Both the position numbers and the translations under genes were made by a program. A stretch of 64,000 nucleotides of DNA from a virus (Duplodnaviria > Caudoviricetes). The notes beneath the pieces are model-generated. The model had not been told where the DNA came from. It worked only from the letters and a program-made list of their open reading frames with translations, and did not search any database. The stretch is taken from the IMG/VR virus record IMGVR_UViG_3300007747_000009, positions 44,898-108,897 of that record. One strand, written 5' to 3'. This document shows positions 1 through 64,000 of this stretch, one piece after another; position 1 is the first letter of the stretch; every line of letters begins with the position of its first letter.

Positions 1-528
1 AATCGCAACGATAATGGATTAATAATTGGAAACTTTATAATTAAAAAACTTATGAAGAAAGGTGAAAAAGGATTTGAGTATGATGGTATTTCTATTTCAC
101 AAATAGCCAGATGGAGTGTTAATGCTTATACAGTACTAGAATTTTTCAGATGTAGTGATGAAGACAACAAATACCAATCCAATAGTGAAAGTACTGGTGA
201 CCGTTACACCATCGATATTCGTAGTAATTATTGTGTAATTGAATATCAACACGAATACGAATTCTATAGTGATTTTGTTATTGCACAAGATGATATTCCA
301 TATGACAGTACTGCATCAGTAGAAGAACGCAAAATGAGTGTTGATATAGCTATCGATAATGTTATGCTTAATGAATTTATGCATGAGGTTATTGAATTTC
401 AAAGTTCAGGGTTGAAGAATATAAACATAATAAAATATAAACATAATTTAGGTGAAATAGATTTTATGCGGGAAGGTTTATACCAACAAATGATCAAACG
501 TCCATACTTTAAAAGGTTGATAAAATGA
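1..528 (+). CDS. FQ-motif paralog family protein (5'-truncated by window)
   Basis: Frame open from base 1 into the 52..528 ORF; motif EVIEFQSS; stop overlaps next ATG. Confidence 0.7.
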   Translation, partial: NRNDNGLIIGNFIIKKLMKKGEKGFEYDGISISQIARWSVNAYTVLEFFRCSDEDNKYQSNSESTGDRYTIDIRSNYCVIEYQHEYEFYSDFVIAQDDIPYDSTASVEERKMSVDIAIDNVMLNEFMHEVIEFQSSGLKNINIIKYKHNLGEIDFMREGLYQQMIKRPYFKRLIK

Positions 529-1172
529 ATCATCACAGTTTAGTACAGCATTATAAAATTCTAAAGCATATGGCTAATCTTTCTGAGGTGATGTTTAACA
601 ATGGTAAAAATCCAGACATAGCCAAAAGAATGAAATGGGACATATATGAAACTGATGATGACACCTATCGTGTGTTGTTTGATAAAACAACCAGTTTATT
701 TGAGTTAATCAGAATACACAAAAGTTCAGGTTATAAACTTGCTAATACTAGTATTACTAATACCGTTTTATCTTATGTTAATAATTATATTTACAGTGGG
801 GCAAGTAATGGTAGTAGTTTTGGATTAAGATTAAATTGTCGTGAAAAAGATATAATTTATGTCACACCAGATAACCGTTCTAAAATTGATCTTTCTATAT
901 TACCAGATACAGTACTTGAATTATTAGAAAGAGATTGTTATGAAGAATTAGAATTCCAATACAGTACTTTATACAATTTCGAAGGGCAATCATTTCAACT
1001 GTATTGCATTTATAGCCTTTTGTCACATGCAGATAATATTCATACATTTCCGGTTCCGGGTTATTATGTAAACATTGATTTAGTAAAACGTGTTTATGAA
1101 AGTGATATTGACGAAGTTGAATCAGCATTGTATAATTTATTACAAAAAACCATTAAGGATTTATCATGTTAA
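525..1172 (+). CDS. FQ-motif paralog family protein
   Basis: 215 aa; EELEFQYSTLYN; overlaps both neighbours. Confidence 0.8.
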   Translation: MNHHSLVQHYKILKHMANLSEVMFNNGKNPDIAKRMKWDIYETDDDTYRVLFDKTTSLFELIRIHKSSGYKLANTSITNTVLSYVNNYIYSGASNGSSFGLRLNCREKDIIYVTPDNRSKIDLSILPDTVLELLERDCYEELEFQYSTLYNFEGQSFQLYCIYSLLSHADNIHTFPVPGYYVNIDLVKRVYESDIDEVESALYNLLQKTIKDLSC

Positions 1173-1699
1173 AAGTTCGCTTTAAAATTTTATCCCTTTT
1201 AGAGGATATTTTAAAACATCTACAATTTAATTCGATTACTGATTTCACTCATAATATTGGCAATGATCATGTAGTTACCAGTCGTAATACTGAAAATGGT
1301 GGACACATAATTTCCATTTATTCATATAAAGATATGCTTCAAAAATATAGTTTAGATACTGGTGTAGAAAGTGAAATTGTATATGGTGTAATTACTATTC
1401 CACAACTATGTTTAGTTTTATCAATCACTAAATGTGAAGAACTAATACTACCCAATAAGGGTACTATTGCAATCCGAAATGATATAAATTTGAATACAGA
1501 TGCTGAGTCTACTTTATTCCAGTTGAGTACAATTTATGATGACACTATACTTACAGCACTTGCACTTGTATCACATTTTAAACACCATTCAGTACTACCT
1601 TTATTGAATTTGGGTTTTTCGTGTTATGCAGATGATGAAGATGAATTGAACAAGGTCATTACTGATTTAGAATCCATAAAGGAGAAGTTATATGAGTGA
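1166..1699 (+). CDS. FQ-motif paralog family protein
   Basis: 177 aa; SD AAGGA; ESTLFQLSTIYD. Confidence 0.8.
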   Translation: MLKVRFKILSLLEDILKHLQFNSITDFTHNIGNDHVVTSRNTENGGHIISIYSYKDMLQKYSLDTGVESEIVYGVITIPQLCLVLSITKCEELILPNKGTIAIRNDINLNTDAESTLFQLSTIYDDTILTALALVSHFKHHSVLPLLNLGFSCYADDEDELNKVITDLESIKEKLYE

Positions 1700-2213
1700 T
1701 ATTATTAGTACTTTTATGCAACGTGTAGTTAACTTACATAAATCAAAAACACTATCACGAGGGAGTCATATTAAATTTTTTAATAGCAAACATATTATTT
1801 TCATTTACAAAGATAAAGTTGAGTTCCGGGAAAAGAGTAATAATTTATGCAGATTAGCAATTGCGTTTTCTATGCGTGGGGAAGATAAAGCTAATAACTC
1901 CCGTGAGTTCGGAGGGGATGTTAGTTACTTATTCAAATCTAACTACAAACAAACTATTACCATTTACGATAATTCTGGAAGTTTTGAGATTGACATTCCA
2001 CGCTTCAATGACAATGAAGAAGAACTACTCTTTACCCTCAGTACTTTGAGTAATTCGGCTTTGTCTATTTTAATGTCATCAATTCTATTGACAATGGACA
2101 CTGCGTTGAATACAGTATACTCATATGGTCTTCAGAACGAGGATCTTGAATCATTTAGTGAAATCATGGGGATGGCAGAAGAATGGAATACCAAAATTAC
2201 ACAAATCTATTAA
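1692..2213 (+). CDS. FQ-motif paralog family protein (variant)
   Basis: 173 aa; SD AGGAG; EELLFTLSTLSN. Confidence 0.75.
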   Translation: MSDIISTFMQRVVNLHKSKTLSRGSHIKFFNSKHIIFIYKDKVEFREKSNNLCRLAIAFSMRGEDKANNSREFGGDVSYLFKSNYKQTITIYDNSGSFEIDIPRFNDNEEELLFTLSTLSNSALSILMSSILLTMDTALNTVYSYGLQNEDLESFSEIMGMAEEWNTKITQIY

Positions 2214-2770
2214 AGTCAGTATTACATTTAGATAAGATTGAGAACTCTTTTTTCGGTGAAATTTCTTTTCAATGGGATAAATTTCATTTACCAATTGAAA
2301 TGACAATATACAAAGATAAAGGAGATGTTGAATTGACAACAAAGATTGATAAAGATAACAATCATTGTCCTAAATTAATTCAGATTCGTCTTTATAAATT
2401 AGATCCTGATGTAACTGAAGCAAGTTTTTGTCGGGCTACATCATATACTAATCTCGACTTACAAACATTGAACTACGCTGAATATAATTCAGATAAAATT
2501 CATCTTTCGGGATTAGCACTAACTGACCGTAACTTTCATCTGAACTACGATTCATATGAGAGTGAACATTTTCAGTACTCAACAATTGAAGAGATAAGAG
2601 ATATAGAGTTTTACCACAATTTGCATCACCTCTATGGTCACTTCAATACTATAATGCCACAGTATAAAGGATTATCCATTCAGTACAATCAAGATTACAC
2701 TGATTTTTTGACTGAAGAGTTTCGTGAATTTATAACTCAAAAAGCATGGGGATTGATTTCACTAGCATGA
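2183..2770 (+). CDS. FQ-motif paralog family protein
   Basis: 195 aa; ESEHFQYSTIEE. Confidence 0.8.
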   Translation: MEYQNYTNLLKSVLHLDKIENSFFGEISFQWDKFHLPIEMTIYKDKGDVELTTKIDKDNNHCPKLIQIRLYKLDPDVTEASFCRATSYTNLDLQTLNYAEYNSDKIHLSGLALTDRNFHLNYDSYESEHFQYSTIEEIRDIEFYHNLHHLYGHFNTIMPQYKGLSIQYNQDYTDFLTEEFREFITQKAWGLISLA

Positions 2771-3447
2771 AAACTACATATGAAAAGACTATAAAATTAT
2801 CTCAGTACATTAAAGATATTATGTACATGCAAAAGTACTACTTGGATATATACCATGAAATCAACAAAGTATATATTGCAGGAAAACGTACTACTAAAAA
2901 GTTATCAGTTGAATCAGTAAGATCATACTCTATGTATATTCAACCAGTTGAACAAGTTGTTCAAAGTTCAGTACAGCAAAAGAATGACTATAATGATATA
3001 GTACTAATGTCATTATCTAATTCAGATGCACATATTAAAAATAATACAAATAAAGGTGCAAAGTACAAGTACATTCATCAATTTTCATCAGATCCTAAAG
3101 GTTCAATTTTCAATACAGAAGCAATAGCCGAACAGTACAGAGATTTGTATTTTATTTTAGACAACGGTATTAACAACAACACAATAAAAGAATCGGAATT
3201 CCAAGCTTCATTGTTGAGTTGCAATGAAAGCATGGTTAGGATATACTTGTATACATTATTGTTTGATTCTTTAAAAGATATGCAGTTCGAAGACCAATAT
3301 CCGGTTTCATTATGTTTATCTAGTACAGATATACTCAGATACATACCTGCAAGAAAAGCATATATTGACTTATTAGATAAGAGAGTGGGGACTAGACATG
3401 ATTGGAGAGAAGAACTTAAAGTGCGTTATGGACGTACTATTGAATGA
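2767..3447 (+). CDS. FQ-motif paralog family protein
   Basis: ATGA overlap start chosen; KESEFQASLLSCN. Confidence 0.75.
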   Translation: MKTTYEKTIKLSQYIKDIMYMQKYYLDIYHEINKVYIAGKRTTKKLSVESVRSYSMYIQPVEQVVQSSVQQKNDYNDIVLMSLSNSDAHIKNNTNKGAKYKYIHQFSSDPKGSIFNTEAIAEQYRDLYFILDNGINNNTIKESEFQASLLSCNESMVRIYLYTLLFDSLKDMQFEDQYPVSLCLSSTDILRYIPARKAYIDLLDKRVGTRHDWREELKVRYGRTIE

Positions 3448-3994
3448 TGAACTATATTTTGCACTACATTCATTACTAGAACGTTTTAATAACTTCAGGG
3501 CAGAACATATTAATAGTACTGGGTATGATGGATTGAATAATATTATCTCAAAGCATGGTCTAATGGATTCTGAGACTTGGAGAGATGCTCTTTATATCAG
3601 AACCACACAACCTAATGCTGGAAGTGTTGGTTCTGTATTGGAGTTAAGACAGTATGTTACAAATCACCCAGAGAATACTTTAGTAAGTAATAGAATGGAA
3701 ATTGAAGGTTATGCAAGAGCAACTGACATTAGTCCAATTAGAACAATAGTTTCTAGTAATGTTAGTGATAGTGTTGGATGGTACTTAGTAGATAATTATG
3801 TTACTGATGATGTGGAGGCAGAATTATTCCAACTCAATACTATACATGAGGTGTACAGTACTTATGAGCTTCAAGAGATCATGAACAGGGCAATGAATCT
3901 GCCTCTTCTTCAAAATGATCACTTGACAATCTTAGAAGGAATGGTGTATCATGATGCCTATAAACACATGAACAATATTCTACGGGGTTATTAA
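3428..3994 (+). CDS. FQ-motif paralog family protein
   Basis: EAELFQLNTIHEVYSTYEL; start uncertain. Confidence 0.75.
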   Translation: MDVLLNDELYFALHSLLERFNNFRAEHINSTGYDGLNNIISKHGLMDSETWRDALYIRTTQPNAGSVGSVLELRQYVTNHPENTLVSNRMEIEGYARATDISPIRTIVSSNVSDSVGWYLVDNYVTDDVEAELFQLNTIHEVYSTYELQEIMNRAMNLPLLQNDHLTILEGMVYHDAYKHMNNILRGY

Positions 3995-4401
3995 TGATTT
4001 TATATCATGCCAGTACTGTACAAATTGATGAATTCTTTGTCCCTCATGGTGGTATACACACAGGAGGGCGTCATAGTGCTCTTGAGGCGGCCTTGCGTAA
4101 GGTTCGTGGGGACAATGCAAACGAAGACATTAAGATATATGTGCATCGCTTAGACGTTGATCTAGGGCGTTCTGTGCTATTGGATGATATGGGAAATTGT
4201 GATAGTTGGCGTAGAATGATCATTGATTGCGACCGCGAAGGGTATAGCAGTATTGAGTACAGTAATGTGTATGAACCGGATGTATGTAATTCTTATATGA
4301 TATGGGAACCAAGTAGGATTAAAGTCCTATCTATTGAAGTACTTAGTCAAGATGCAGCGGAGGATATCGTTAATGAATTTTACGAAACGTATAACCTTTA
4401 G
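3994..4401 (+). CDS. Putative ADP-ribosyltransferase-fold protein
   Basis: N-terminal LYHAS..GIHTG and C-terminal YxNxYE..SYMIWEPSRIK pattern resemble small ART-fold domains. Confidence 0.45.
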   Translation: MILYHASTVQIDEFFVPHGGIHTGGRHSALEAALRKVRGDNANEDIKIYVHRLDVDLGRSVLLDDMGNCDSWRRMIIDCDREGYSSIEYSNVYEPDVCNSYMIWEPSRIKVLSIEVLSQDAAEDIVNEFYETYNL

Positions 4402-4987
4402 TGATGATGTGGATGAGGAAATTTACATCTTCAAGATGATGATTGATATTAGTGAGCGTATTCATGGACTTAGAATTGTAGGTGAAGTTCAAGTGAATGA
4501 TAATATTGATATGATCTTTAAATTAAATTGCAATGCCAGTACTAATATAATAGTATTAAAAAATAAGAACCGCATTGATAAAACTATGTTAATGGTTAGT
4601 GATAGGGAGACGATGGATCTAATTAATGTCAGGTTGTCAACTCATTGGGGCTTTAATCGTAACCCAAATAGTGATAATGTTAATAGATTTTCATTTGTAA
4701 ATAGCAATCAAGAAAATTTAGATGAAGAACTAGATTCATACCTAGAAGGTGGTGTAATGAATATACCAGAAGATTATTATTTCCAGCAAATGTTGGTTCG
4801 TGATGATTTGATTGCATATGAGGACATTCAACGCTATCTGGATGCATTGACTATGAAATCCACCTTGAATGGGTGTGTCTGTTTTTATAAAATTCCCGAA
4901 TATACATATATTGAATATAATTTAATCTACGATAAAGTACTAGAAACGATAACGGAGTTTTTATATGGCATTTCAAAAACGGACTGA
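4373..4987 (+). CDS. FQ-motif paralog family protein
   Basis: SD GGAGG; MNFTKRITF..DEEIY matches next gene's MAFQKRTEF..DEEIY; EDYYFQQMLVRDDLIAYEDI. Confidence 0.8.
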   Translation: MNFTKRITFSDDVDEEIYIFKMMIDISERIHGLRIVGEVQVNDNIDMIFKLNCNASTNIIVLKNKNRIDKTMLMVSDRETMDLINVRLSTHWGFNRNPNSDNVNRFSFVNSNQENLDEELDSYLEGGVMNIPEDYYFQQMLVRDDLIAYEDIQRYLDALTMKSTLNGCVCFYKIPEYTYIEYNLIYDKVLETITEFLYGISKTD

Positions 4988-5561
4988 ATTTATAGATGAA
5001 GTAGATGAAGAGATATATAATTTTTCGGTAATAGTACAGATAGCTGAGCATCTTTACGGTTCAGACATGCATTTCTATCGAGAAGAAATTCCAAATGTAG
5101 GTTTCATTTGGACAGCGAGAAATTCAGGGACTGATACTAATATTTTATGCTTTATGAAATCAATAGGTTCAAAAGTATATGAGATTTTAGAAGTGAGTTC
5201 GTCTCAAGTTCTAATGAATGTAAGACTTAAAAAACATATTGCTATTACACGCCTACGCAATGAATACCGATATAAATATTCATTTTTCGATAAGGATAAA
5301 TGTGAGTTAGATGATCTTCTCGATGGTGGTATTATGAGAATTACAGAGGAAGAATATTTCCAGTACTCATTAGTTTGTAATGATTATATGGCTCATTATG
5401 AAGACCTACCACGCTTCATGGAGATGTTAAAAATCGAAACTTCACTAGATCACGTTTCCCTTTATCATGAAAAATGCAAACATCTTACTGCAAAAGAATA
5501 TAATGAAATTTATGATGTTGTTTTAACTAAATTGTATGAGTTCGAAAATGAACATAAATGA
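4965..5561 (+). CDS. FQ-motif paralog family protein
   Basis: SD GGAG; EEEYFQYSLVCNDYMAHYEDL. Confidence 0.8.
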   Translation: MAFQKRTEFIDEVDEEIYNFSVIVQIAEHLYGSDMHFYREEIPNVGFIWTARNSGTDTNILCFMKSIGSKVYEILEVSSSQVLMNVRLKKHIAITRLRNEYRYKYSFFDKDKCELDDLLDGGIMRITEEEYFQYSLVCNDYMAHYEDLPRFMEMLKIETSLDHVSLYHEKCKHLTAKEYNEIYDVVLTKLYEFENEHK

Positions 5562-6108
5562 AGAATTAAAAATACTTAAGATTGTACTAAGCATATGTGA
5601 AGGTATAAGTACATCTAATATACAGCCCGGACATTATACTTATGATATTACACCGTCACCTAAAGGACGGTTAATATTCAATAATAAGGATTCATTTTCA
5701 ATTTTGTATGGTGACACTGTAATTTTATATATAGAAAATTATGAATATCCACAATTGAGAACTGATAGTGACTGGACAATTTGCTTTGAGCCGTCATCTG
5801 AACATTATAATTGTTTTAGTTTCTTAAATTCGGGCGATGATTTAGAAGCTGAAGAATTTATAGATAGTTTCACTTATAATGCAAGAATTATGACAGAGGA
5901 AGAGTACTTTCAGGCTACATGTATTCATCCAGATATGCCCCCGTATGAAAATATATCTAGTTATTTAAAAATTATGGATGAAATGCGTAGATCATTTTTG
6001 CGGGGATCGTTATGGTTAAAAATGAAACCTGCATTGGATTATGATTTTTACAGAAAACTACGGCGTACTCTTATTCACGAAGGTGGGATTAATATAAATG
6101 TATATTAG
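5536..6108 (+). CDS. FQ-motif paralog family protein
   Basis: EEEYFQATCIHPDMPPYENI. Confidence 0.8.
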   Translation: MSSKMNINEELKILKIVLSICEGISTSNIQPGHYTYDITPSPKGRLIFNNKDSFSILYGDTVILYIENYEYPQLRTDSDWTICFEPSSEHYNCFSFLNSGDDLEAEEFIDSFTYNARIMTEEEYFQATCIHPDMPPYENISSYLKIMDEMRRSFLRGSLWLKMKPALDYDFYRKLRRTLIHEGGININVY

Positions 6109-6709
6109 TGATGATGATTATATAAAAGCATTAGAGATTAACTTATCGCTGTTTACTCTCATGCGAAAGATTTATAAGTACGTAATATTGTATGAAGGTG
6201 AGACAATACTTTCTAAATCACTGATTAAAATACATGATAACGAACTCAAATATATGGCTGGGATTGAAAAATCATGGATATTAAAATCACCCCTTGAAAA
6301 TTCTAGATATAGTATTGCTTTTGAGTTTAATCAAATGTCTATGATATATGGCTCAGCACAGTCATATTTAAACATATTCAATGGTGATGAAATAATTCTG
6401 AATAGTGAATATAGTAAATTTATTATAACTGGATTTCCCGAAGTTGATAAGCATTTTATGGGATGGGAATTTGATTTATCCGAAGAACAATATTTCCAGT
6501 ACTGTACTTTATATGATGTACCTAGTTACGATAGACTATTAAAAACTTGTAATCTATTAAAAGAGTTTCGTTATCACTCAGATCATCGAGATGGTGAAAA
6601 CCATTTATATTACAATATTCATTTCAAACAAATATGCAACAATCTAGAGGCATTTAGTGCAATCAGGGATGCACTTATTAAAAAATTAGGAGAATTTGAA
6701 AATGTATGA
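6098..6709 (+). CDS. FQ-motif paralog family protein
   Basis: EEQYFQYCTLYDVPSYDRL. Confidence 0.8.
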   Translation: MYISDDDYIKALEINLSLFTLMRKIYKYVILYEGETILSKSLIKIHDNELKYMAGIEKSWILKSPLENSRYSIAFEFNQMSMIYGSAQSYLNIFNGDEIILNSEYSKFIITGFPEVDKHFMGWEFDLSEEQYFQYCTLYDVPSYDRLLKTCNLLKEFRYHSDHRDGENHLYYNIHFKQICNNLEAFSAIRDALIKKLGEFENV

Positions 6710-7169
6710 ATCTAATACCATACAAGTACTTGACAACATCAACACAATCAATTATATTGTACAGGATTGTTTGAAACACGTATCAGGTTCTAATGTTTCT
6801 GCCCGAAACACAGCGGTGAAGGGTGATGGATATGCAATGGATATTAAATTGGGTTATGCAAATTGTTACAATTTTCACATACGAACCCAGTACTTACAAG
6901 ATTTGTGCCGAGTCTATTTAAGTCCACGTGAGTTATATGTTCGGTACTCACCAAAATTTATGTTCGGTTACCATCCTAAAACTAAATTATTCTCAACAAA
7001 CTTATTCTCAGAAACCTTCACATTAGATGATATGGAGTCGGTATTCTTCACTCAAAACTGTTTAGACGGTTGGGGGTTGCAAGTTGAGTTTGATTGTGAT
7101 ATCATGAAAACAACACTTAACATGTGCAGGAAAATTCACGATGATTTCGTTATTTCTATCAAAAAATAA
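6702..7169 (+). CDS. FQ-motif paralog family protein (degenerate)
   Basis: SD AGGAG; ESVFFTQNCLD at equivalent position. Confidence 0.65.
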   Translation: MYESNTIQVLDNINTINYIVQDCLKHVSGSNVSARNTAVKGDGYAMDIKLGYANCYNFHIRTQYLQDLCRVYLSPRELYVRYSPKFMFGYHPKTKLFSTNLFSETFTLDDMESVFFTQNCLDGWGLQVEFDCDIMKTTLNMCRKIHDDFVISIKK

Positions 7170-7605
7170 AACACGCCTAACAACACTCGATGAATTGATT
7201 GATGTTGTTGTAACGAACAAAGACTTACTTCAAAAAGATGGTATTACAAACATAAATGGTATTGTTTTCTATCATTGCACAAATAGTGATGATGAGATTT
7301 TATTATCTTACGGTTCTAATTGTTTAAAAATCACAAAGCATCATTACCGTGATATTAAAAGATACCATGTATGTTCACATGAAATGACTTCAGATACAGA
7401 AAGATTTGAATTTGAAATAACAAAGGAGGGAGTTAATTTTGGAGATAAAACCGGTTCTGCTGTACTTCTCCCTCACGAAGCATTTGAATGTGAAATAAAC
7501 TTCTTCCAGTACACCCTAATGAATCTAAAGTATTCATGTACTGAACAAAGTATCATTAAACTCGTAAACTTAATACAAGAGGTATTAGATGTCAAACTTG
7601 GATAG
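7141..7605 (+). CDS. FQ-motif paralog family protein
   Basis: EINFFQYTLMN. Confidence 0.75.
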   Translation: MISLFLSKNKTRLTTLDELIDVVVTNKDLLQKDGITNINGIVFYHCTNSDDEILLSYGSNCLKITKHHYRDIKRYHVCSHEMTSDTERFEFEITKEGVNFGDKTGSAVLLPHEAFECEINFFQYTLMNLKYSCTEQSIIKLVNLIQEVLDVKLG

Positions 7606-8089
7606 TATCTTTAAAAGTCTAAGTAACCACTTTAATAGGGGTTCAAACAAATTAGTATCAAATAACAATTATGCAGTATACAGTGCTGGTACTATTCATC
7701 AGATCACAATCGAGAATGAAACAGTTATTATTGGACACGACACATTACGTTTAGTCTATACTAATACAGATAAGACTGCATCTGTTGCATTTTCTCCTGC
7801 TAAAATATCGGTTGGATCATATGTACGTGAGGTTGAACTCAACCTCAGTGTGATGAATGACGGATATAAGAATACATACAATCGTCTTCATGTGGATGGT
7901 GGTGAACTATTCCAACTTAGTACTGTATATGATTTTGACTTCACAATCCTCCAAGATATTTTAGCTAAATACTTAGAGCTTCTAAAAGTGATGAAAACTT
8001 CTGATAAATTAAATAATGATCATCCACAAATTGATGAGGCGATCAAAAATATTTCAGAAGCTGTTGCACTTTACAATAAAGAAGCATAA
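7589..8089 (+). CDS. FQ-motif paralog family protein
   Basis: SD GAGG; GGELFQLSTVYD. Confidence 0.8.
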   Translation: MSNLDSIFKSLSNHFNRGSNKLVSNNNYAVYSAGTIHQITIENETVIIGHDTLRLVYTNTDKTASVAFSPAKISVGSYVREVELNLSVMNDGYKNTYNRLHVDGGELFQLSTVYDFDFTILQDILAKYLELLKVMKTSDKLNNDHPQIDEAIKNISEAVALYNKEA

Positions 8090-13344: not shown

Positions 13345-13881
13345 ATGAATGAAGTGAAATATAAAAAGAAAGACGGTACATTTATTCAGTCCTTTAATAA
13401 GCAAGTACCTGAAAACTTTACTGGATATAAAATAAGTAAAGACTATAATAAAATCAGTTCAATTCGTGAGTATCTAAATAGCCATGAGATAGGAAATATC
13501 AAGTTCCGACCCACTAAAATTCCAGTTGTTTTTACTGTGTCATACGAAAATGGATATAGAGAAACACGGTACTCAAATGGTAACATCCAACACGCCTTTA
13601 ATAGAAATTCAGATGGTATGATGTACGGGGAATCTCGTACATATGATAGTGGTGGTGTTTTAGTTGGTAGAACATATCACTACGAGCATAAGAATGTCAC
13701 AGAAGATATTAAATCCTTTATTGGTTATACTGGTGGAGACATGAATTTCGTTGACTACCAATTCGGTGAAGATGAGATCTTTAATATCTATATGAGGTAC
13801 GGAAGTAAATTTAAATTTTTCAACGAGTACAGAATTGATAAATCCATTATTGATGATATTGCTAAGTTCTGTATAGAATAA
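13345..13881 (+). CDS. Hypothetical protein with MORN-variant-like repeats
   Basis: YENG..YSNGNI..MYGESRTYDSGG. Confidence 0.6.
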   Translation: MNEVKYKKKDGTFIQSFNKQVPENFTGYKISKDYNKISSIREYLNSHEIGNIKFRPTKIPVVFTVSYENGYRETRYSNGNIQHAFNRNSDGMMYGESRTYDSGGVLVGRTYHYEHKNVTEDIKSFIGYTGGDMNFVDYQFGEDEIFNIYMRYGSKFKFFNEYRIDKSIIDDIAKFCIE

Positions 13882-13892
13882 AGGAAACTATT

Positions 13893-14420
13893 ATGGGTGG
13901 AAAGGAAATCACCAACGACAAATCAATACATTACAGCTCAGGGAAAGATATTTGGTGTACTCCACCAAAACTCTTTAATGATCTAAATTCCTTATGGAAC
14001 TTTACGTTAGATGCTGCTTGTATGAAAGAAACTGCTTTATGTAAAAAGTACTTCACACCAGATGACAATAGTCTAATCCAAGACTGGAGTACTGATACTG
14101 TCTGGTTAAACCCGCCGTACAGTGATTTAAAAACATGGTTAGGTAAAGCAGTACAAGAATATAAACGTGGTGCTACGGTAGTAATGTTAGTACCATCTAG
14201 AACAGATACTATTGCATTTCAGAATTTTGCAGTTCCTGAGTGTAGTTGCATTTGTTTTGTTAAGGGAAGGATTACTTTTATTGATCCAGAAGAAACCGAT
14301 TTGGATAAGAAAAAGAATCCTGCACCCTTTCCAAGCTGTTTATTAATTTTAGATAATGACTTAACAGAAGAGAAAATAGAATACTTAAAAACTTTAGGAC
14401 GGGTAATGAAAAATGTCTAA
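13893..14420 (+). CDS. Phage DNA N6-adenine methyltransferase (Dam-like family)
   Basis: W-x-TP, FTLDAA, WLNPPYS catalytic motif, VMLVPSRTDT, GRITF, APFPS. Confidence 0.9.
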   Translation: MGGKEITNDKSIHYSSGKDIWCTPPKLFNDLNSLWNFTLDAACMKETALCKKYFTPDDNSLIQDWSTDTVWLNPPYSDLKTWLGKAVQEYKRGATVVMLVPSRTDTIAFQNFAVPECSCICFVKGRITFIDPEETDLDKKKNPAPFPSCLLILDNDLTEEKIEYLKTLGRVMKNV

Positions 14421-14949
14421 AACGTGTGTGTTTATGTACGGGAGAATGAATCCAGTACACTTAGGTCACGGTATGGTGTTCGATAAAGCTTTGAACTTGC
14501 AAAATGACAGTACTGATGTTAAACTCTTTTTGAGTTCATCCTATGATACAGAAAAGAACCCACTTCCCAGAGAAGTTAGACAGTACTTTATATCTGAGTT
14601 CTTCCCTGATATTCGGGATAACATTCAAGATGTGTATGTAAAAAACCTCTTCGATATCATGAAATCCCTTGATGGTGAGTACAACAACGTTGTGTTCGTT
14701 GGTGGTTCTGATAGGACTGATAATTTTCAAAAAACCCTTGACAAATACAACGGAAAGGAATATAATTTTAATTCAATCAGCACAGTACTAGCTGGGATGG
14801 ATCGAAATGCGTCGATTTACAGCAGTACTCACATGCGTGAGTCAGTACTAAAAGATGATTTTGAATCATTCAAGATATGTCTTCCGGGAGATAATGAATA
14901 CTTAAAATATGATATGTTTTGTCGTGTCCAACGGCATATGGGGATATAA
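14413..14949 (+). CDS. HxGH-family nucleotidyl(cytidylyl)transferase-like protein
   Basis: GRMNPVHLGH, KNPL, VGGSDR, SSTHMR. Confidence 0.75.
   Translation: MSKTCVFMYGRMNPVHLGHGMVFDKALNLQNDSTDVKLFLSSSYDTEKNPLPREVRQYFISEFFPDIRDNIQDVYVKNLFDIMKSLDGEYNNVVFVGGSDRTDNFQKTLDKYNGKEYNFNSISTVLAGMDRNASIYSSTHMRESVLKDDFESFKICLPGDNEYLKYDMFCRVQRHMGI
14738..14766 (+). promoter_or_regulatory. Perfect sigma70 consensus promoter inside a CDS
   Basis: TTGACA-17-TATAAT. Confidence 0.55.
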
Positions 14950-15249
14950 TTGAACTTAGAATACTTACCACCGAACCAAATTATCTGGGACGAAAATGAA
15001 CGAACTGGAAAGCGTCATGTAGACCTAATCAATACTGATAATGGTGTAAAACTGATTGCAATAATTTCTCACCGCAACAAAGCGGAGTGGGAAGCAAGAA
15101 TTATACCGATGGGTTATTCATTCAGTGATGATGATGTTAGATCATTATGGCCTGAATTATCAGGATTCGTCCTTGAACTCATGAAATATTTAGAAACAAA
15201 CACAGAAATTACCTACGAAGATATCCTTAGTTTTATTGGACTTGAGTAG
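14950..15249 (+). CDS. Hypothetical protein
   Basis: 99 aa; TTG start abutting previous stop. Confidence 0.65.
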   Translation: MNLEYLPPNQIIWDENERTGKRHVDLINTDNGVKLIAIISHRNKAEWEARIIPMGYSFSDDDVRSLWPELSGFVLELMKYLETNTEITYEDILSFIGLE

Positions 15250-15266
15250 TACTTAAAGGGGAACAA

Positions 15267-15884
15267 ATGTTAATACAATCCGAATCTTTTGCACGTTATC
15301 ATCGCATGGGCTTTTCACCACGACCGGTACGTGGTAAGGGCGATGAACAAGATTTTGCGGTTGCCTACTACTTTGATAATGTACAATATGTATTCAATGA
15401 CTACGGTACTTACGAAGAAGATGGTAACGTAGATGATATGAATATGACAGTACTTAATCTTGATTACATTATTAATAGTGATCGTCATGAAAAAGTAAAA
15501 GCAGTTGCTGACCATATTCAACAACAATTACGCGTACCTATTTGGTGCGAAATCGCGTTAGACACGCAGCTTGGAATTTCGTTCGGTAGCAGTTCTGGAA
15601 TCATTGCACAAATGATCATGGATTTCCCAACTAAAGAGAAGTTCGAAGATTACAAAGCAAAACTACTTGAACAATTGAAATCACTAAGTCCTGATTTAGA
15701 TCTAAGTAAGCTACCACCAATTGAAGATGTGGTTGATTTTATTTTAATCCCTTCTGAAAGTGAGTACGACATTCTTTTCAAAGATCTAAAAGTTGATGGG
15801 GTTATTGTCGAAAATCTAGATGATGATGATTTTTATATTGAAATCAATCTCGATGATGATCCAGATGATGACGATGACGAATAA
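15267..15884 (+). CDS. Hypothetical protein with acidic tail
   Basis: 205 aa; SD AAGGGG. Confidence 0.8.
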   Translation: MLIQSESFARYHRMGFSPRPVRGKGDEQDFAVAYYFDNVQYVFNDYGTYEEDGNVDDMNMTVLNLDYIINSDRHEKVKAVADHIQQQLRVPIWCEIALDTQLGISFGSSSGIIAQMIMDFPTKEKFEDYKAKLLEQLKSLSPDLDLSKLPPIEDVVDFILIPSESEYDILFKDLKVDGVIVENLDDDDFYIEINLDDDPDDDDDE

Positions 15885-16002
15885 GTGTAAACATTACTGG
15901 GAAGAAGACCATCGTCCCGGTTCTAACTACGGTGGCTATTGCTGCCGTAAATGTGGTTCTTCTGCAAAGAATCCTTGGGAGGATAAAAATGCCAAAAACT
16001 GA
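15874..16002 (+). CDS. Small putative zinc-binding protein
   Basis: CKHYW...CRKCG. Confidence 0.55.
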   Translation: MTNKCKHYWEEDHRPGSNYGGYCCRKCGSSAKNPWEDKNAKN

Positions 16003-16675
16003 TTATACAAAATTACGTACCAAAGTACTTGGAATCATCGAAGGGTTGGCTTTATCTAATCCTGAATACAATAAATTACGTAAGCTACTTATCTTATGTG
16101 AACAAGTACATTCCGGTTCTCGTAAAGATGGTAGTAAAGAATTTAGCCACCAACTTGAAATGATTGCATTCGCCCTCACTTATCATACTCAATTAGAGTC
16201 ACCACTTGAAGTGTACTTGGCTATTCTAATTCATGATGTAATAGAGGACTATCCGGGGATGCGTTTAGCTATTGAACGTGACTTCCCAGAGGAATTAAAG
16301 TACAGTGACCGTTTATCCAAGTTCAAAGACCCTGATGGTGGATATGGATTGTACTTCGCTAATCTAAGTACTTGTCCAATCTGTAGTATTGCTAAACTGA
16401 TCGACCGTGTACACAATCTAAGTACTGCACCCGGTGTATTCAAAACTGCTAAGATTCTTGAGTACTGTAAAGAAACTGAACAATACTATTTCGAATTGAT
16501 TCGCATGTGCAAAGAGAACTTTACGAATCGTAATGTATATGAGAACTTGAAGTTCATTCTTACTACACAGGTTAATACTATTCAGTCCTTAGTTCCACAA
16601 GAACAAAATGAAGTATATCAAACTTCTATTGAATTATATAAATTGAATACAATAAAGGTTGATAAAAATGAATAG
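15989..16675 (+). CDS. HD-domain hydrolase, SpoT/Mesh1 (p)ppGpp hydrolase-like
   Basis: SD GGAGG; HxGxRKDG..H, ILIHDVIED, KLIDRVHNL. Confidence 0.8.
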   Translation: MPKTDYTKLRTKVLGIIEGLALSNPEYNKLRKLLILCEQVHSGSRKDGSKEFSHQLEMIAFALTYHTQLESPLEVYLAILIHDVIEDYPGMRLAIERDFPEELKYSDRLSKFKDPDGGYGLYFANLSTCPICSIAKLIDRVHNLSTAPGVFKTAKILEYCKETEQYYFELIRMCKENFTNRNVYENLKFILTTQVNTIQSLVPQEQNEVYQTSIELYKLNTIKVDKNE

Positions 16676-16889
16676 TGGATTTAAAACGTTAATTTGGTTT
16701 AATCGCCTTGCAATGGTATTAATTTATTTTATTATGTTTTCCACCTTTATTGCCGTTTCAACGATTGAAATTGGTTCTTTATTTTTATTATGTGCCATTG
16801 GTTGCATTTTGTTATTAGGTGCAGGATGTTTTGCAATACAGATCCTAGAAGAGATTAACAAGGAGCTTAAAAATGGACCAACCCTCTAG
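16668..16889 (+). CDS. Small two-TM membrane protein
   Basis: Two hydrophobic stretches. Confidence 0.7.
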   Translation: MNSGFKTLIWFNRLAMVLIYFIMFSTFIAVSTIEIGSLFLLCAIGCILLLGAGCFAIQILEEINKELKNGPTL

Positions 16890-17040: not shown

Positions 17041-17059
17041 CCTGTTATAATACAGGCTA
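17024..17059 (+). promoter_or_regulatory. sigma70-type promoter with -10 inside an inverted repeat
   Basis: TTGACA-16-TATAAT; TAGCCTGT-TATAAT-ACAGGCTA. Confidence 0.65.
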
Positions 17060-17083
17060 TATTTTTAATTAAACGGGGTTACC

Positions 17084-42455: not shown

Positions 42456-42471
42456 ATTCAACTATTATATA

Positions 42472-54174: not shown

Positions 54175-54882
54175 ATGGTAATGACCAACCGAGAATTATT
54201 AAATATTTTAAAGGTTCATTTCTTAACAAATTATAACACTACGTCATTTTTCATATATGGCTCATATGCAGAATTAAGAAAAGATTTTTTACTTACACCA
54301 AAGGATATTGATGTAATTTTAATAGATGCTTCAAATATTGAACACGGAAAAGAAATTATTATTAATATTCCTGAAATTGATCTACCCATAAATATTTGTT
54401 CAAAATCAATCGAAGAAGTAAAAAAAGATGCACTAAATCTTGAACCTAAATTTTTCAGCACTATATTCCCATCTGGCTCGTATGAGTTATTTTGTGTTCT
54501 TAGTGATTCGATTGATATGAAAACACCTAAAGAAATAAGACATGCAATTAGTAATTTTAGTTCATCCGCTTATAATAAAGGTAAGAAGAAGTTAATCGTT
54601 GAAGAAGATTACGATGAATATTTGGGATTGAAAAATTTATATCATGCATTCAAATTCATTGTGTACGCAATGAACTATTACGGTGATATTAATTACGCAT
54701 CATCATTCGTTGATCCAAAATACTATGAAATATGGTACTTGAATGATATTAGAAAACTAATTTTTAATACTTATGCTTCTAGTACTGGTACAAATGAAGA
54801 AAGATTCAAAGCAGTTGACATAGTGATTCGACCACTGTACAATGCACTCATGACAAAATTTAGAAAGAAATTCCCAAAATGA
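54175..54882 (+). CDS. Pol-beta-type nucleotidyltransferase-like protein
   Basis: IYGS...KDIDVI. Confidence 0.55.
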   Translation: MVMTNRELLNILKVHFLTNYNTTSFFIYGSYAELRKDFLLTPKDIDVILIDASNIEHGKEIIINIPEIDLPINICSKSIEEVKKDALNLEPKFFSTIFPSGSYELFCVLSDSIDMKTPKEIRHAISNFSSSAYNKGKKKLIVEEDYDEYLGLKNLYHAFKFIVYAMNYYGDINYASSFVDPKYYEIWYLNDIRKLIFNTYASSTGTNEERFKAVDIVIRPLYNALMTKFRKKFPK

Positions 54883-54891
54883 GGTTAACAT

Positions 54892-55152
54892 ATGATTACT
54901 AAAGGGCCGTGGGCCATTGAAAAAAATGAAGATACCGGTTGTTGGATGGTTGTAACGCAAGATGGTAACGAAATCTATTCAGTTTCAAAAAGTGAAAGTG
55001 ATTGGGAAAATGTATGTCTAGCACGTTCTGGACCGTACTTGATGGAAGCATTAGAAGAAATTTTAGCAACGCTAGATCCTGACGGCAACCATCCATTCTT
55101 TGGAAAAGCTAGAGTTTCACTACAATACGCAAAATTAAACCCGGACGAGTAA
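54892..55152 (+). CDS. Hypothetical protein
   Basis: TKGPW..N..L...P.L.EALE pattern; SD GAGG. Confidence 0.75.
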   Translation: MITKGPWAIEKNEDTGCWMVVTQDGNEIYSVSKSESDWENVCLARSGPYLMEALEEILATLDPDGNHPFFGKARVSLQYAKLNPDE

Positions 55153-55225
55153 TAAAATATGAAAAAACAAATCAAAGGACGCATGACTTTCCATTAGTGA
55201 TACTTAAACACTAATAGGAGAATAT

Positions 55226-55786
55226 ATGTTCTTTAATCAAACATTCGTGCTCTACCACGATTCAGGTAATATCGAAATTGTAGAAGATCTCATTACATAC
55301 ATTAGAGCAGTAGGTTATCCTCGCTTCCATGCAACAATGAAATTTAACGTTGGTGAGTACAAGAGAACTCGCGATCTATATGGTACTCCGGGATGGTATG
55401 ATTCATACGCTCTTGGTCGGGCAAACTACTGCGACAACCATTTTGGTTTCTTCTTGTGTACTGAAAAGGGTATCATGATTTCCCCGGACTTACTTACGGG
55501 TGAATACGAAAGATGGTACTCAAGCTATGCGTTCAACTGGCGTACTGCATACGCTAAACGGATGTGGAACCGTCAAGGTACGACGAGCCACACTAGGACA
55601 GGTGACAAGCACCCTACTAACCAACAAGCCCGTAGAATGGCGGTAGGGGTGGTTAAAGAGGATGGTGAGCCTGAGTTTCGTGGTGCTCGCCGGAATTTAA
55701 ACTCTTGGTGGGATGAAGTACAAGTAAGAAGAAGCTGTTCTTGGAAGAACTGCACTAAACGTAAAAAACAATACAAAGGGAGCTAA
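55226..55786 (+). CDS. Hypothetical protein
   Basis: 186 aa; SD AGGAG; basic tail SWK..KRKKQY. Confidence 0.8.
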   Translation: MFFNQTFVLYHDSGNIEIVEDLITYIRAVGYPRFHATMKFNVGEYKRTRDLYGTPGWYDSYALGRANYCDNHFGFFLCTEKGIMISPDLLTGEYERWYSSYAFNWRTAYAKRMWNRQGTTSHTRTGDKHPTNQQARRMAVGVVKEDGEPEFRGARRNLNSWWDEVQVRRSCSWKNCTKRKKQYKGS

Positions 55787-55800
55787 TGCTCCCTTTTTCT
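55775..55800 (+). terminator. Intrinsic terminator
   Basis: AAAGGGAGC-TAAT-GCTCCCTTT-TT. Confidence 0.75.
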
Positions 55801-55813
55801 ATAGGTACAAATT

Positions 55814-56143
55814 ATGAACAAGCAAAAAGTTAGTATCAGTATTGGTGGATTCCCAATAGAAGAAATGCCACTTGATGAATTAATCTCTAAATTAGAAGGG
55901 TTCAAAGCAAATCCAGATGATGACATTACAGTAAAGTTCGAAGGTGCTTATGATGGTTACTACGATTTTGTATTGATGTTAAATCGTGAAGAAACAGATG
56001 AAGAATTGGAAGCTAGAATCCAAGAATCCAAAAAGAACCAACGAGCTAAGACTAAAAAAGAGATGGACAGGCTCATGAAATCTGATACACTCACTGAAGA
56101 TGAGAAAAACAAACTGATCAACTACATTCGGAGTACTAAATGA
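55814..56143 (+). CDS. Hypothetical protein (paralog pair)
   Basis: LDELISKL...REETDEE. Confidence 0.75.
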   Translation: MNKQKVSISIGGFPIEEMPLDELISKLEGFKANPDDDITVKFEGAYDGYYDFVLMLNREETDEELEARIQESKKNQRAKTKKEMDRLMKSDTLTEDEKNKLINYIRSTK

Positions 56144-62837: not shown

Positions 62838-62866
62838 AAAAGCACCCTAGGGTGCTTTTGTTGTTT
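62838..62866 (+). terminator. Intrinsic terminator
   Basis: AAAAGCACC-CTAG-GGTGCTTTT then GTTGTTT. Confidence 0.7.
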
Positions 62867-62909
62867 GTACAGAACATGAACAGACTGCCATTTCCTTGAT
62901 CTAGATCAA

Positions 62910-62938
62910 GGGACGAAGTGGGTTATATGTGATATAAT
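62910..62938 (+). promoter_or_regulatory. Promoter GGGACG-N17-TATAAT with TGTGA extended -10
   Basis: Recurring motif upstream of nrdD. Confidence 0.65.
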
Positions 62939-62986
62939 CAATGAGTGATGCGTAAATAATTCACCTATATGACACGGAGAGTCGAA

Positions 62987-64000
62987 ATGAAAAATGATGA
63001 TTTATACAATGATGTAACAAATTTCTTAAACCAAAGTAATGCGGATTTGTTAAATGAAAATGCAAATAAAGATGCAAAAATAGTTAATACACACCGGGAT
63101 TTACTTGCGGGAATACTTTCCAAGCACTGGGCAACTGAAAAATTATCTGATGATTTAATACAATGGCATAACGATGGTTATGGTCATATTCACGATTTAG
63201 ACTATTTTATTTCCCCACTTACAAATTGTTGTTTAGTAAACTACCGGGACATGTTAGAGAATGGATTCAAGATCGGTAATGCACAAGTTGGTACTCCCAA
63301 CAGTATTGGAGTTGCCAGTACAGTACTAACACAGATAGTACTTGCAGTCTCGGCTTCACAATATGGCGGTCAATCCCTCGCACACATCGACTTTGGCCTT
63401 GAGCCATACGTTGAGAAGTCCTACAAGAAGCTACAGCAGCTTCAATCAGAATTCAACCTACCAGACAGCTACGTTGAAAAAACCCTCCAGAAAGAGGTAT
63501 ACGACGCAATGCAAGCACTTTTGTACCAAGTGAACACTATAACCTCCAGTAATGGTCAAACTCCATTCGTCACGATCAGTTTGGGCTTAAATACCTCCAA
63601 ATTTGGGCAAATGATCACAGATGCGTACTTAAAGGTTCATGAGAAAGGTTTGGGTGTTGATGGTAATACTCCAGTGTTTCCTAAAGTAGTTTTCTTCTTA
63701 GAAGAAGGTACTAACTTAAATCCTGAAGATCCTAACTATTTCTTAAAAGAACAAGCAATGAAGACTGCTGCTAAGAGAATATACCCAGATTTTGTTTCAG
63801 TACCATTAAATCATAAAGTAACCGGAAGCAATACCGTTGCGGTTTCGCCTATGGGTTGTCGCTCATTCTTGAGTGCTTGGGAAGATGAAAATGGAAATGA
63901 ACAATATGATGGTAGATTTAATTTGGGTGTAGTTTCTATCAATTTACCACTTCTAGCATTAGAATCAGAGACTGATGGTGAGTTTTTTGGTAAGATTGAT
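62987..64000 (+). CDS. nrdD: Anaerobic ribonucleoside-triphosphate reductase large subunit (3'-truncated by window)
   Basis: Manual translation: NENANKD, RDLLAG, HIHDLDY, TNCCL, QYGGQ, GQTPF, FPK, YPD, PMGCRSFL, GRFNLGVVSINLP. Confidence 0.92.
   Translation, partial: MKNDDLYNDVTNFLNQSNADLLNENANKDAKIVNTHRDLLAGILSKHWATEKLSDDLIQWHNDGYGHIHDLDYFISPLTNCCLVNYRDMLENGFKIGNAQVGTPNSIGVASTVLTQIVLAVSASQYGGQSLAHIDFGLEPYVEKSYKKLQQLQSEFNLPDSYVEKTLQKEVYDAMQALLYQVNTITSSNGQTPFVTISLGLNTSKFGQMITDAYLKVHEKGLGVDGNTPVFPKVVFFLEEGTNLNPEDPNYFLKEQAMKTAAKRIYPDFVSVPLNHKVTGSNTVAVSPMGCRSFLSAWEDENGNEQYDGRFNLGVVSINLPLLALESETDGEFFGKID

Follow-up and report, generated by a model that had tools for sequence, protein, structure and literature searches.

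The window analysed here (64,000 bp) comprises positions 44,898-108,897 of a contig of 108,897 bp, which represents about 31% of a RaK2-like jumbo phage (a giant enterobacterial phage). Its GC content is 30-36% throughout, and the hexamer AGTACT forms an unstranded field over its whole length (positions 1-64,000), with 190 dispersed sites, or about one per 337 bp, in all reading frames, in genes of both orientations and between genes. One hundred dinucleotide-preserving shuffles gave 16.99 ± 3.95 sites and never more than 27. The contig contains 383 sites versus 36.8 expected from base composition (10.4 times), and AGTACT is its top-ranked hexamer by count. A preceding sequence-only reading had listed 17 coordinates in bases 1-5000, every one an exact match, and its claims that the high density extends window-wide, minus-strand genes included, and involves all three frames are borne out by the frame counts (60/37/62 in plus-strand genes and 8/2/4 in minus-strand genes, with 17 further intergenic sites). 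The density is flat along genes and, in the contig, amounts to 4.7 per kb in intergenic versus 3.3 per kb in coding DNA. The octamer CAGTACTG makes up 14 of the 190 window sites. A suggested link to FQ motifs and array shuffling did not hold up, since only 11 of the 190 sites occur in the context TTYCAGTACT and only three of these lie inside the FQ array (1-8089). The window also contains a gene for a phage-type N6-adenine DNA methyltransferase (13893-14420, plus strand, 175 aa; Pfam PF05869, Dam; NCBIfam phage_N6A_met), which is clade-specific and highly conserved; its orthologue 7t3_188 is on average 75.6% identical between genera, and neither PA5oct nor T4 has a match to it. Enzymes of the PF05869 family that have been characterised target GATC.

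Spacing of AGTACT along the contig is approximately exponential (median 197.5 bp versus 196 expected, CV 1.2), with a surplus of pairs 20-21 bp apart. When pairs from four genomes are pooled, distances of 10-12 bp and of 20-22 bp are in excess, and the spectrum has power near a period of 10 bp. Close pairs in the window include the sites at 29832 and 29840 (29832-29845, unstranded), as well as 18003/18015, 24011/24021, 32826/32837, 34330/34342, 50193/50204 and 63322/63337. Among the longest site-free stretches is the unstranded interval 28414-29831 (about 1.4 kb), with similar ones at 36131-37603 and 54787-56131; all three are shorter than the maximum gap of about 1.7 kb that chance would produce on the contig, and the field therefore has no significant hole in the window.

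The excess survives controls for coding content. The 310 coding sites of the contig compare with 82 ± 8 after synonymous-codon shuffling, 38 ± 6 after codon-order shuffling, and 195 ± 9 after shuffling third positions with the protein and all dinucleotides unchanged, while strictly intergenic contig DNA carries 68 sites versus 4.8 under a first-order Markov model (14-fold). The sequence-only reading had placed the cause at the level of DNA rather than protein, to be abandoned if the excess vanished on codon- and dinucleotide-preserving shuffling or was confined to one frame; it outlasted the shuffles and occupies every frame. Given the spread of the sites over all frames, both gene orientations and the DNA between genes, and the persistence of the excess through these controls, the excess originates at the DNA level. 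AGTACT has also bent protein sequences to fit, at a cost to the proteins.

The excess is common to seven related jumbo phages with 850-1,300 sites each. Counts of AGTACT and, for control, of its reversal TCATGA are 853/145 in 7t3, 891/135 in PBECO4, 1,235/187 in CBB, 1,011/169 in GAP32, 1,105/186 in XbC2, 1,313/200 in Hallingskeid and 937/142 in RaK2. It is absent from the outgroups T4 (29/51), PA5oct (15/40) and Atu_ph07 (25/82), and from Escherichia coli K-12 (400/1,147), relative to which the clade phages are 30-40 times denser in AGTACT. GCGC and 19-24 six-base palindromes have disappeared completely from the clade genomes, which show no enrichment of AT-only or other tolerated palindromes. 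Within the searchable papers, literature on the RaK2-like clade makes no mention of AGTACT.

In four clade genomes, the full word occurs at 7-11 times expectation, variants at its outer positions at 1.0-3.0 times, and variants at its inner positions at about 0.5-1.9 times, while no variant exceeds about 1.2 times in the outgroups. The flanks in the same genomes are symmetric and behave independently of one another: C at -1 is found at 1.6-2.7 times and G at -1 at 0.36-0.58 of expectation, with T preferred at -3/-4 and A at -7 to -9. The fuller word is H-AGTACT-D, frequently CAGTACTG or TTCAGTACTGAA. The enrichment of AGTACT is four times that of either of its half-words, which are balanced genome-wide (198 versus 183) on mostly plus-strand coding DNA. 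A Chi-like or KOPS-like orientation is not seen at this scale, since the word is a palindrome and its halves are equal; one-sidedness is found in local zones only.

Aligned sequences also show that the positions of the sites are conserved above background. In codon-aligned orthologues with about 50-58% amino-acid identity, 24-46% of AGTACT sites are kept, versus 10-14% for frame-matched and same-composition hexamers, a two- to threefold difference in retention. Between PBECO4 and G17 (98.1% identical), 4.4% of AGTACT sites differ versus 8.7% of all hexamers; the pair 7t3 and Munch gives no significant constraint (3.3% versus 3.7%). On two polarised branches, losses number 7 versus 16.5 under neutrality and gains 5 versus 2.9, all small counts. 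Turnover occurs by point-substitution gains and losses, without a mobile repeat.

Some of the sites have a recognizable place in early promoters. In the jumbo clade, AGTACT stands directly upstream of the -35 box and also in the spacer beside the -10 box, and the form AAAAGTACTTGCA-N9/10-AGTACT-K-TATAAT, which recurs in the early region of the contig, is found in gene orientation in 7t3, Hallingskeid and PBECO4. The contig plus strand has 25 occurrences of AGTACTTGC, 12 of AGTACT-K-TATAAT and 12 two-site promoters, nearly all of them left of the window. AGTACT is therefore an element of sigma70-type early promoters in four genera, following gene orientation at a fixed position relative to -35 and -10. 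Promoter placement accounts for at most about 10% of the sites in the contig.

The word also occurs outside the jumbo clade. An unrelated family of enterobacterial prophages of about 30 kb carries the same word, the same flank rule and the same loss of GCGC: two of its members (G001 and G002) contain 103 sites in 31.8 kb and 85 in 29.5 kb, and a Mangrovibacter plantisponsor prophage contains 53 in 21.8 kb, all three with zero GCGC and with G at -1 in 3-9% of AGTACT sites. The small prophages lack the AGTACT promoter architecture. Comparison of jumbo core families with the small prophages by blastp and profile searches found in common only lysozyme, a lysis-cassette protein and tail-fibre genes, and no plausible reader gene. 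No TetR_N family gene is present in five clade genomes, and CBB_511, the sole small HTH regulator annotated, does not occur in 7t3, Hallingskeid, PBECO4 or the contig. The RE_ScaI profile (PF09569) had no match in the contig, 7t3, PBECO4, Hallingskeid or RaK2, a weak test in which the controls were also matchless. A word and flank rule shared without a shared reader gene suggest that the reader, or the selective agent, may be host-encoded.

The explanation that we favour, with confidence somewhat short of even, is that AGTACT, which saturates the RaK2-like jumbo genomes, is a selected double-stranded DNA recognition word with a putative reader, of phage or host origin. The reader would be a dimeric sequence-specific factor that depends above all on the GTAC core, less on the outer A and T, and disfavours G at -1. 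Each bound site would confer a small benefit, perhaps by marking, organising, protecting or regulating the phage DNA, so that selection would maintain about one site per 280-400 bp. The placement of AGTACT beside the -35 and -10 boxes of early promoters suggests that the reader probably also touches early transcription. Of the three mechanisms proposed in the sequence-only reading, the others being a methylation or repair-driven bias and recombination seeds, a DNA-binding protein gives the best fit, because of the symmetric flanks, the graded variants, the conserved positions and the fixed promoter positions; its reader was not found, and need not be encoded by the phage.

A second possibility, which we consider unlikely, is a molecular drive, in which biased repair, recombination or replication creates or restores AGTACT and the density is a by-product, as with the uptake bias of the USS and DUS words. 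About 54-76% of site positions differ between genera at unchanged density, implying continual turnover, and gains and losses on recent branches are roughly balanced. The higher intergenic density is compatible with such a process, as are two clade-specific, highly conserved nuclease-fold proteins (a T5orf172 protein of 102 aa with 84.7% identity, and an endonuclease VII-like protein), and persistent biased conversion, in place of selection for binding, could also give conservation above background. However, no neighbouring word is depleted as short-patch correction would demand, and by the reasoning of the hotspot paradox gene conversion is expected to lose a nuclease target, not gain it. The identical word and flank rule in small prophages, whose genes for replication and recombination are different, also argue against a drive, and fixed promoter positions, kept across genera, suggest that the word is used. 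As for the repair-driven bias put forward in the sequence-only reading, a Vsr-type process, like that acting on CCWGG in E. coli, should deplete the transition neighbours AGTATT/AATACT or AGTGCT/AGCACT, and no such signature was found in four genomes, where they occur at 1.06-1.21 and 1.19-1.70 times expectation, respectively.

Modification of AGTACT or GTAC by a phage methyltransferase, with accumulation through methylation-coupled repair bias or selection for methylated sites in the manner proposed for HIP1, is distinctly improbable. It would be consistent with the conserved Dam-family gene at 13893-14420, with the two or three DNA methyltransferases reported in CBB, RaK2 and Sharanji, and with a weak amino-methyltransferase-like ORF in prophage G002 (matches to MTS, Eco57I and N6_Mtase, E = 3e-4 to 0.02). 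Against it, a native-versus-amplified nanopore comparison of Hallingskeid, which has 1,313 AGTACT and 3,916 GTAC sites and just two reported methyltransferases, reports only GATC and CCWGG, and the methylome of Kaldavass adds only TGCAT (PMC11780129), leaving the earlier suggestion of methylation at AGTACT unsupported. The enzyme encoded at 13893-14420 was considered as a possible writer of AGTACT, but no evidence connects it with the word. The usual target of its family is GATC. That motif is present in the Hallingskeid methylome, which has nothing at GTAC (PMC11780129). The undepleted transition neighbours also count against this reading, an enzyme specific for GTAC or AGTACT would not yield graded flank preferences, and the candidate enzymes of the jumbo and small-prophage families are unrelated.

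A feature for which a simple double-stranded DNA reader does not account is a set of local one-sided zones, in which GTACT is missing from the coding strand and AGTAC is retained. None of the 24 GTAC in contig positions 39,501-42,500 and none of the 67 in PBECO4 positions 117,001-124,000 is part of a GTACT, with equal polarity to the coding strand in both genomes; gene orientation is inseparable from overall genome polarity in these two genomes. A ban on the coding strand only points to a possible strand-specific signal, read either in RNA (as GUACU or AGUACU in transcripts) or in single-stranded DNA, where one strand would present the word while the DNA is transcribed, replicated or packaged; the palindrome would then simply secure the word in either orientation. 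As an explanation of the whole field this is more doubtful still, given the equality of the half-words genome-wide, the fourfold greater enrichment of the full palindrome, the symmetric flanks, and a density that is flat along genes and greater between them.

Recruitment or titration of the host nucleoid-occlusion protein SlmA, whose binding site GTGAGTACTCAC has AGTACT in the middle, blocking division of infected cells, is very improbable. Both AGTACT-rich phage families have enterobacterial hosts, in all of which SlmA is presumably present. The published SlmA binding site is GTRAGYRCTYAC (PMC3020112), and cells infected by the relative Sharanji filament (PMC11895373). However, binding by SlmA depends strongly on G and T at positions 1-2 and on a purine at position 3 (PMC3020112), while phage sites prefer C and avoid G at the matching -1; the flank requirement around the AGYRCT core is unmet, with full sites at 0-1 per phage genome and half-sites at 0.3-0.75 of expectation. 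Finally, an origin as a statistical side effect of codon usage, of dipeptide content or of purging other palindromes is already refuted: part of the excess does sit in protein sequence (82 after synonymous versus 38 after codon-order shuffling) and these genomes avoid many other words, but the coding count lies far above every shuffle, the intergenic excess is 14-fold, other tolerated palindromes are not enriched, and the purged source words are much too scarce to yield 900-1,300 sites.

Phages are known for losing short palindromes, and this clade fills its genomes with one as the commonest hexamer. If a reader exists, jumbo phages with unmodified DNA and no nucleus would have a novel means of organising, marking or regulating a chromosome of 350 kb, and the reader and its word would provide a DNA tag and binding pair for practical use. 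That the word recurs in small prophages leaves about 36 genes to be searched if the reader is phage-encoded, or else indicates a host factor. A more speculative form of the proposal, which we regard as unlikely, is that AGTACT is a sequence-only label of 'own DNA', read by a putative dimeric protein that would aim replication, transcription, protection or packaging at unmodified phage DNA, with the GTACT-ban zones marking where reading must not happen; this protein may be host-encoded, because an unrelated prophage family carries the word.

Several known systems resemble the AGTACT field in part. The sequence-only reading had named HIP1 (GCGATCGC, cyanobacteria) as a precedent, which is a fair analogy: HIP1 is likewise a short palindrome over-represented genome-wide, within genes and in all frames, conserved across related genomes, kept by substitution and not by a mobile element, and without a settled function. 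AGTACT shares with it a several-fold genome-wide excess, occurrence in all frames and between genes, and presence in relatives. HIP1 overlaps sites of known cyanobacterial methyltransferases, as two reports discuss (PMC6604393, PMC6105098), whereas no modification is reported at AGTACT in the relative Hallingskeid (PMC11780129). AGTACT also differs in being 6 bp long, AT-rich and found in phages instead of cells, and in coexisting with a near-complete purge of other palindromes and with fixed promoter positions. The USS of Pasteurellaceae and the DUS of Neisseria are genome-saturating words (about one per kb or denser) tolerated, like AGTACT, inside genes at some protein cost; they are far rarer in foreign DNA, and a protein reads them as a mark of own DNA. 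Unlike AGTACT, they are non-palindromic words of 9-12 bp belonging to competent bacteria with known receptors, and we know of no uptake-like or transmission-bias step for the AGTACT-rich phages. Chi (GCTGGTGG) is also a short word enriched genome-wide, whose reader is a DNA-processing machine, but it is asymmetric and co-oriented with replication, whereas AGTACT is palindromic and orientation is possible only in the half-word zones. The SlmA site of E. coli is the only enterobacterial protein-binding site found with AGTACT central in a palindrome, and it occurs about 50 times in E. coli compared with about 1,000 AGTACT per phage genome, where SlmA flanks are disfavoured. Restriction-site avoidance is extreme in the very same clade genomes, with GCGC and 19-24 six-base palindromes at zero; by contrast, AGTACT, a type II-style palindrome and the ScaI site, is enriched 7-11 fold.

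The palindromic hexamer AGTACT occurs 190 times in the window by pattern search, against 16.99 ± 3.95 (maximum 27) in dinucleotide-preserving shuffles, and the 17 coordinates picked out in the sequence-only reading were all recovered among these sites. The GC content of the window is 30-36%. The window forms the right-hand 64 kb of a single viral record of 108,897 bp (hereafter the contig). Over the contig, AGTACT is the top-ranked of all hexamers, with 383 copies where base composition predicts 36.8, and its GTAC core occurs 972 times against an expectation of approximately 348. A simple ORF caller predicted 185 genes covering 86% of the contig; the sites fall in all three frames, at a higher density in intergenic (4.7/kb) than in coding DNA (3.3/kb) of the contig; the frame counts in the window are 60/37/62 for plus-strand genes and 8/2/4 for minus-strand genes, with 17 sites intergenic. 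The 310 copies in contig coding sequence compare with 82 ± 8 when synonymous codons are shuffled within genes, 38 ± 6 when codon order is shuffled, and 195 ± 9 in a third-position shuffle that preserves the protein and all dinucleotides, and strictly intergenic contig DNA contains 68 copies against 4.8 under a first-order Markov model. The three shuffles and the intergenic count thus exclude a codon or dinucleotide artefact, and identify the excess as a DNA-level property, as the sequence-only reading had claimed from the spread of sites over the frames. Because the synonymous shuffle retains more copies than the codon-order shuffle, the amino-acid sequences themselves appear shifted towards dipeptides able to carry the word. 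The feature is genuine and strong, and it is maintained at the DNA level. A further proposal, linking it to the FQ gene array (window 1-8089), found no support, since the FQ motif covers only 11 of the 190 window sites.

In nucleotide and protein searches, the contig groups with the enterobacterial jumbo myophages related to RaK2, of which it represents an estimated 31% of a complete genome. Its nearest relatives are the Salmonella phages 7t3 and Munch and the Klebsiella phage fENko-Kae01 (approximately 76% nucleotide identity over conserved genes); its gene order agrees with that of 7t3, and its orthologues in 7t3, Hallingskeid and PBECO4 have a mean amino-acid identity of 50-58%. Whole records were counted for AGTACT and, as a control, for the reversed word TCATGA. 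AGTACT greatly outnumbers the control in 7t3 (853 against 145), PBECO4 (891 against 135), CBB (1,235 against 187), GAP32 (1,011 against 169), XbC2 (1,105 against 186), Hallingskeid (1,313 against 200) and RaK2 (937 against 142), and is the rarer of the two in T4 (29 against 51), PA5oct (15 against 40), Atu_ph07 (25 against 82) and E. coli K-12 (400 against 1,147). Among these genomes the excess belongs to the enterobacterial RaK2-like clade and is not found in the more distant relatives PA5oct and Atu_ph07, and the density in the clade phages is 30-40 times that on the chromosome of E. coli K-12. In all four of the fully analysed clade genomes AGTACT is the top hexamer; each 10-kb bin contains at least 12 copies, with up to 60-76 per 10 kb in the early region, and the octamer form CAGTACTG occurs 68-232 times per genome, against 1-5 times for its reversed control. 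The usual density is also seen in a block for NAD salvage and signalling (window 45291-46760 and neighbours, plus strand), syntenic with 7t3, which includes a nicotinamide phosphoribosyltransferase (62-66% identical to relatives), an NMN adenylyltransferase/ADP-ribose pyrophosphatase, a Sir2-like protein and a DNA ligase.

The flanks of the word are symmetric and concordant across four genomes, with C at position -1 (the adjoining base) at 1.6-2.7 times expectation and G there at 0.36-0.58, a preference for T at -3/-4, and for A at -7 to -9. The two flanks vary independently, and the most frequent extension of the word is TTCAGTACTGAA. Enrichment is 7-11 times expectation for the full word, 1.0-3.0 times for outer-position variants (NGTACT), and approximately 0.5-1.9 times for inner-position variants; in T4 and PA5oct, every variant is at most approximately 1.2 times expectation. 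Simple mutational decay would feed all neighbours equally, unlike the graded enrichment seen here, and the gradient resembles a landscape of binding energies whose critical core is GTAC.

Spacing between sites is near exponential, with extra pairs 20-22 bp apart and some periodicity of approximately 10 bp; on this and on the only modest flank information beyond CAGTACTG, a longer hidden motif or repeat element was rejected. Pooled pair distances from the contig, 7t3, Hallingskeid and PBECO4 are in excess at 10-12, 20-22, 30, 40 and 58-60 bp, and the spectral power at the approximately 10-bp period is comparable to that of the 3-bp codon signal. This pattern, to which promoter pairs contribute in part, hints that neighbouring sites share one face of the helix. 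Density is even along genes except for small dips at ribosome-binding sites and immediately 5' of stop codons. Arrays of roughly 190-aa paralogous genes contain one-sided zones, at contig 39,501-42,500 (2.4-5.4 kb left of window base 1) and at PBECO4 117,001-124,000, in which GTAC is frequent and AGTAC still common. On the coding strand, GTAC is never followed by T (0 of 24 and 0 of 67, respectively), so the full palindrome is excluded over 3-7.7 kb, with a polarity relative to the coding strand that is identical in the two phages.

Across genera, 24-46% of AGTACT sites are kept at the aligned position, against 10-14% for frame-matched and same-composition hexamers. Between PBECO4 and G17 (98.1% identical), changes affect 4.4% of AGTACT sites, compared with 8.7% of hexamers overall and 9.2% of those with the same composition; between 7t3 and Munch (99.2% identical), the difference is not significant (3.3% against 3.7%). 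Changes polarised on two short branches (ingroup PBECO4 and SD-6_S16, outgroup G17) comprise 7 losses, where a neutral matrix predicts 16.5, and 5 gains, where it predicts 2.9. The numbers are small but concordant: sites are lost more slowly than under neutrality and gained at least as fast, so a force is acting now. These data fit selection or a biased conversion process alike.

Many intergenic sites of the contig early region (13,400-31,100, left of the window) are parts of a repeated sigma70-type promoter, AAAAGTACTTGCA-N9/10-AGTACT-K-TATAAT, in which one AGTACT, at -40/-35, adjoins the -35 hexamer and the other, at -19/-14, occupies the spacer with a single base between it and the -10 hexamer; the two are 20-21 bp apart. 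The same gene-oriented arrangement is present in three other genera (7t3, Hallingskeid and PBECO4). Promoter-linked copies make up at most approximately one tenth of the contig sites and almost none of those in the window, where AGTACTTGC occurs four times. These RpoD-like early promoters were described in the CBB paper, with no mention of AGTACT; literature searches combining the word with these phages, or using the promoter string, returned nothing relevant, and no paper on the phages located in this way described it. One sigma factor of the sigma70 family, approximately 322-331 aa long (7t3 26,691-27,659; CBB_513, L147:19104-20096) and containing sigma regions 2, 3 and 4 according to the CBB paper, is kept in 7t3, Hallingskeid, PBECO4 and CBB but lacks a match in PA5oct and T4, so that its phyletic distribution equals that of the AGTACT excess.

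A HIP1-style explanation, in which a methyltransferase would account for the iterated word, could draw on the 175-aa phage Dam-family N6-adenine methyltransferase encoded in the window (13893-14420, plus strand; PF05869, E = 4.5e-33), which is specific to the AGTACT-rich clade with a mean identity of 75.6% across genera. However, it is rated unlikely, because a native-versus-amplified nanopore study of Hallingskeid and Kaldavass reported GATC and CCWGG as the only modified motifs, apart from TGCAT in Kaldavass (PMC11780129), no variant of AGTACT expected as a repair source is depleted, and no gene in the five clade genomes searched matches a ScaI-type endonuclease (PF09569). The same methylome and the undepleted neighbours weaken the methylation and repair options raised in the sequence-only reading, given that a Vsr-type repair bias would deplete specific transition neighbours. 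No strand breaks were reported in either phage (PMC11780129).

Other short palindromes are missing from these genomes. GCGC is absent from the contig (100 expected) and from each of its 350-kb relatives 7t3, Hallingskeid and PBECO4 (290-550 expected), and in these four, 19-24 of the 64 six-base palindromes are at zero, largely the same set, including GGTACC, CTGCAG, GAGCTC, CCATGG, GTCGAC, AGCGCT, AGGCCT and TGCGCA; T4 and PA5oct show nothing comparable. Most restriction enzymes reportedly fail on RaK2 DNA, which the authors of the RaK2 paper explained by methylation, and the missing sites may account for much of this resistance to cutting.

The same signature is present in an unrelated prophage family, found through a collection scan for clustered AGTACT followed by whole-record counts. 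Two enterobacterial proviruses, G001 (31.8 kb) and G002 (29.5 kb), contain 103 and 85 copies, against 13 and 10 of the control word; a close relative of G002 in Mangrovibacter plantisponsor (NZ_QGTS01000014.1, 21.8 kb) contains 53. Other AGTACT-dense viral contigs from the scan mostly contain tandem repeats inside genes, not dispersed words. AGTACT is the top hexamer in both proviruses (9-10 times expectation) and in the Mangrovibacter locus (7.3 times), GCGC is absent from all three, G occupies position -1 in 3-9% of the provirus sites and in 4 of the 53 Mangrovibacter sites, and 22-25 six-base palindromes are absent from G001 and G002. The small prophages resemble siphoviruses, having a terminase of the GpA type and a tail tip like that of lambda, and blastp and profile searches found as homologues common to the proviruses and the jumbo core only the lysozyme, a neighbouring lysis gene, and tail-fibre genes in one provirus. 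One prophage tail-fibre protein is 51% identical to PBECO4_63 over 954 aa, a likeness that suggests shared hosts and gene exchange. The AGTACT promoter arrangement was absent from the small prophages, and an ESM Atlas look-up of a conserved uncharacterised prophage protein gave nothing informative. That two unrelated phage groups from one host family carry an identical word with an identical flank rule argues for a common reader (a factor recognising AGTACT) or selective agent.

Candidate readers were sought in both host and phage. The site of host SlmA, GTRAGYRCTYAC, has AGTACT at its centre (PMC3020112), and cells infected by the relative Sharanji form filaments; however, host SlmA was rejected as the reader, because the phage flanks oppose its needs, with only 0-1 full SlmA sites in each genome and fewer half-sites than expected. 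A search of five clade genomes for a TetR-family gene (PF00440) gave no match, and thus no phage SlmA-like protein. CBB_511 (HTH_37), the sole annotated small HTH regulator of CBB, was rejected as a reader because it is missing from most of the clade. Phyletic profiling for proteins common to 7t3, Hallingskeid and PBECO4 but lacking in PA5oct and T4 yielded 106 core proteins specific to the AGTACT-rich clade. Approximately 40 of these were scanned against Pfam, PHROGs and NCBIfam, which recovered Dam, the sigma70-like factor, T5orf172, endonuclease VII, RNase H, IF3 and KTSC, left the remainder without an assigned function, and revealed no evident sequence-specific binder among those scanned. 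The most conserved of the 106 (84.7% identity) is a stand-alone, 102-aa T5orf172 (GIY-YIG-like) protein (7t3 256,255-256,563, plus strand); as a gene common to the jumbo clade and the small prophages it was rejected, being present in G002, not in G001, with no link found by profile search. The common reader or agent may be host-encoded, or a small protein too divergent for detection; in the Mangrovibacter prophage family, a reader encoded by the phage would have to be among approximately 36 genes. AGTACT is best filed as a phage counterpart of highly iterated palindromes and of recognition words that saturate genomes, among them USS, DUS and Chi.
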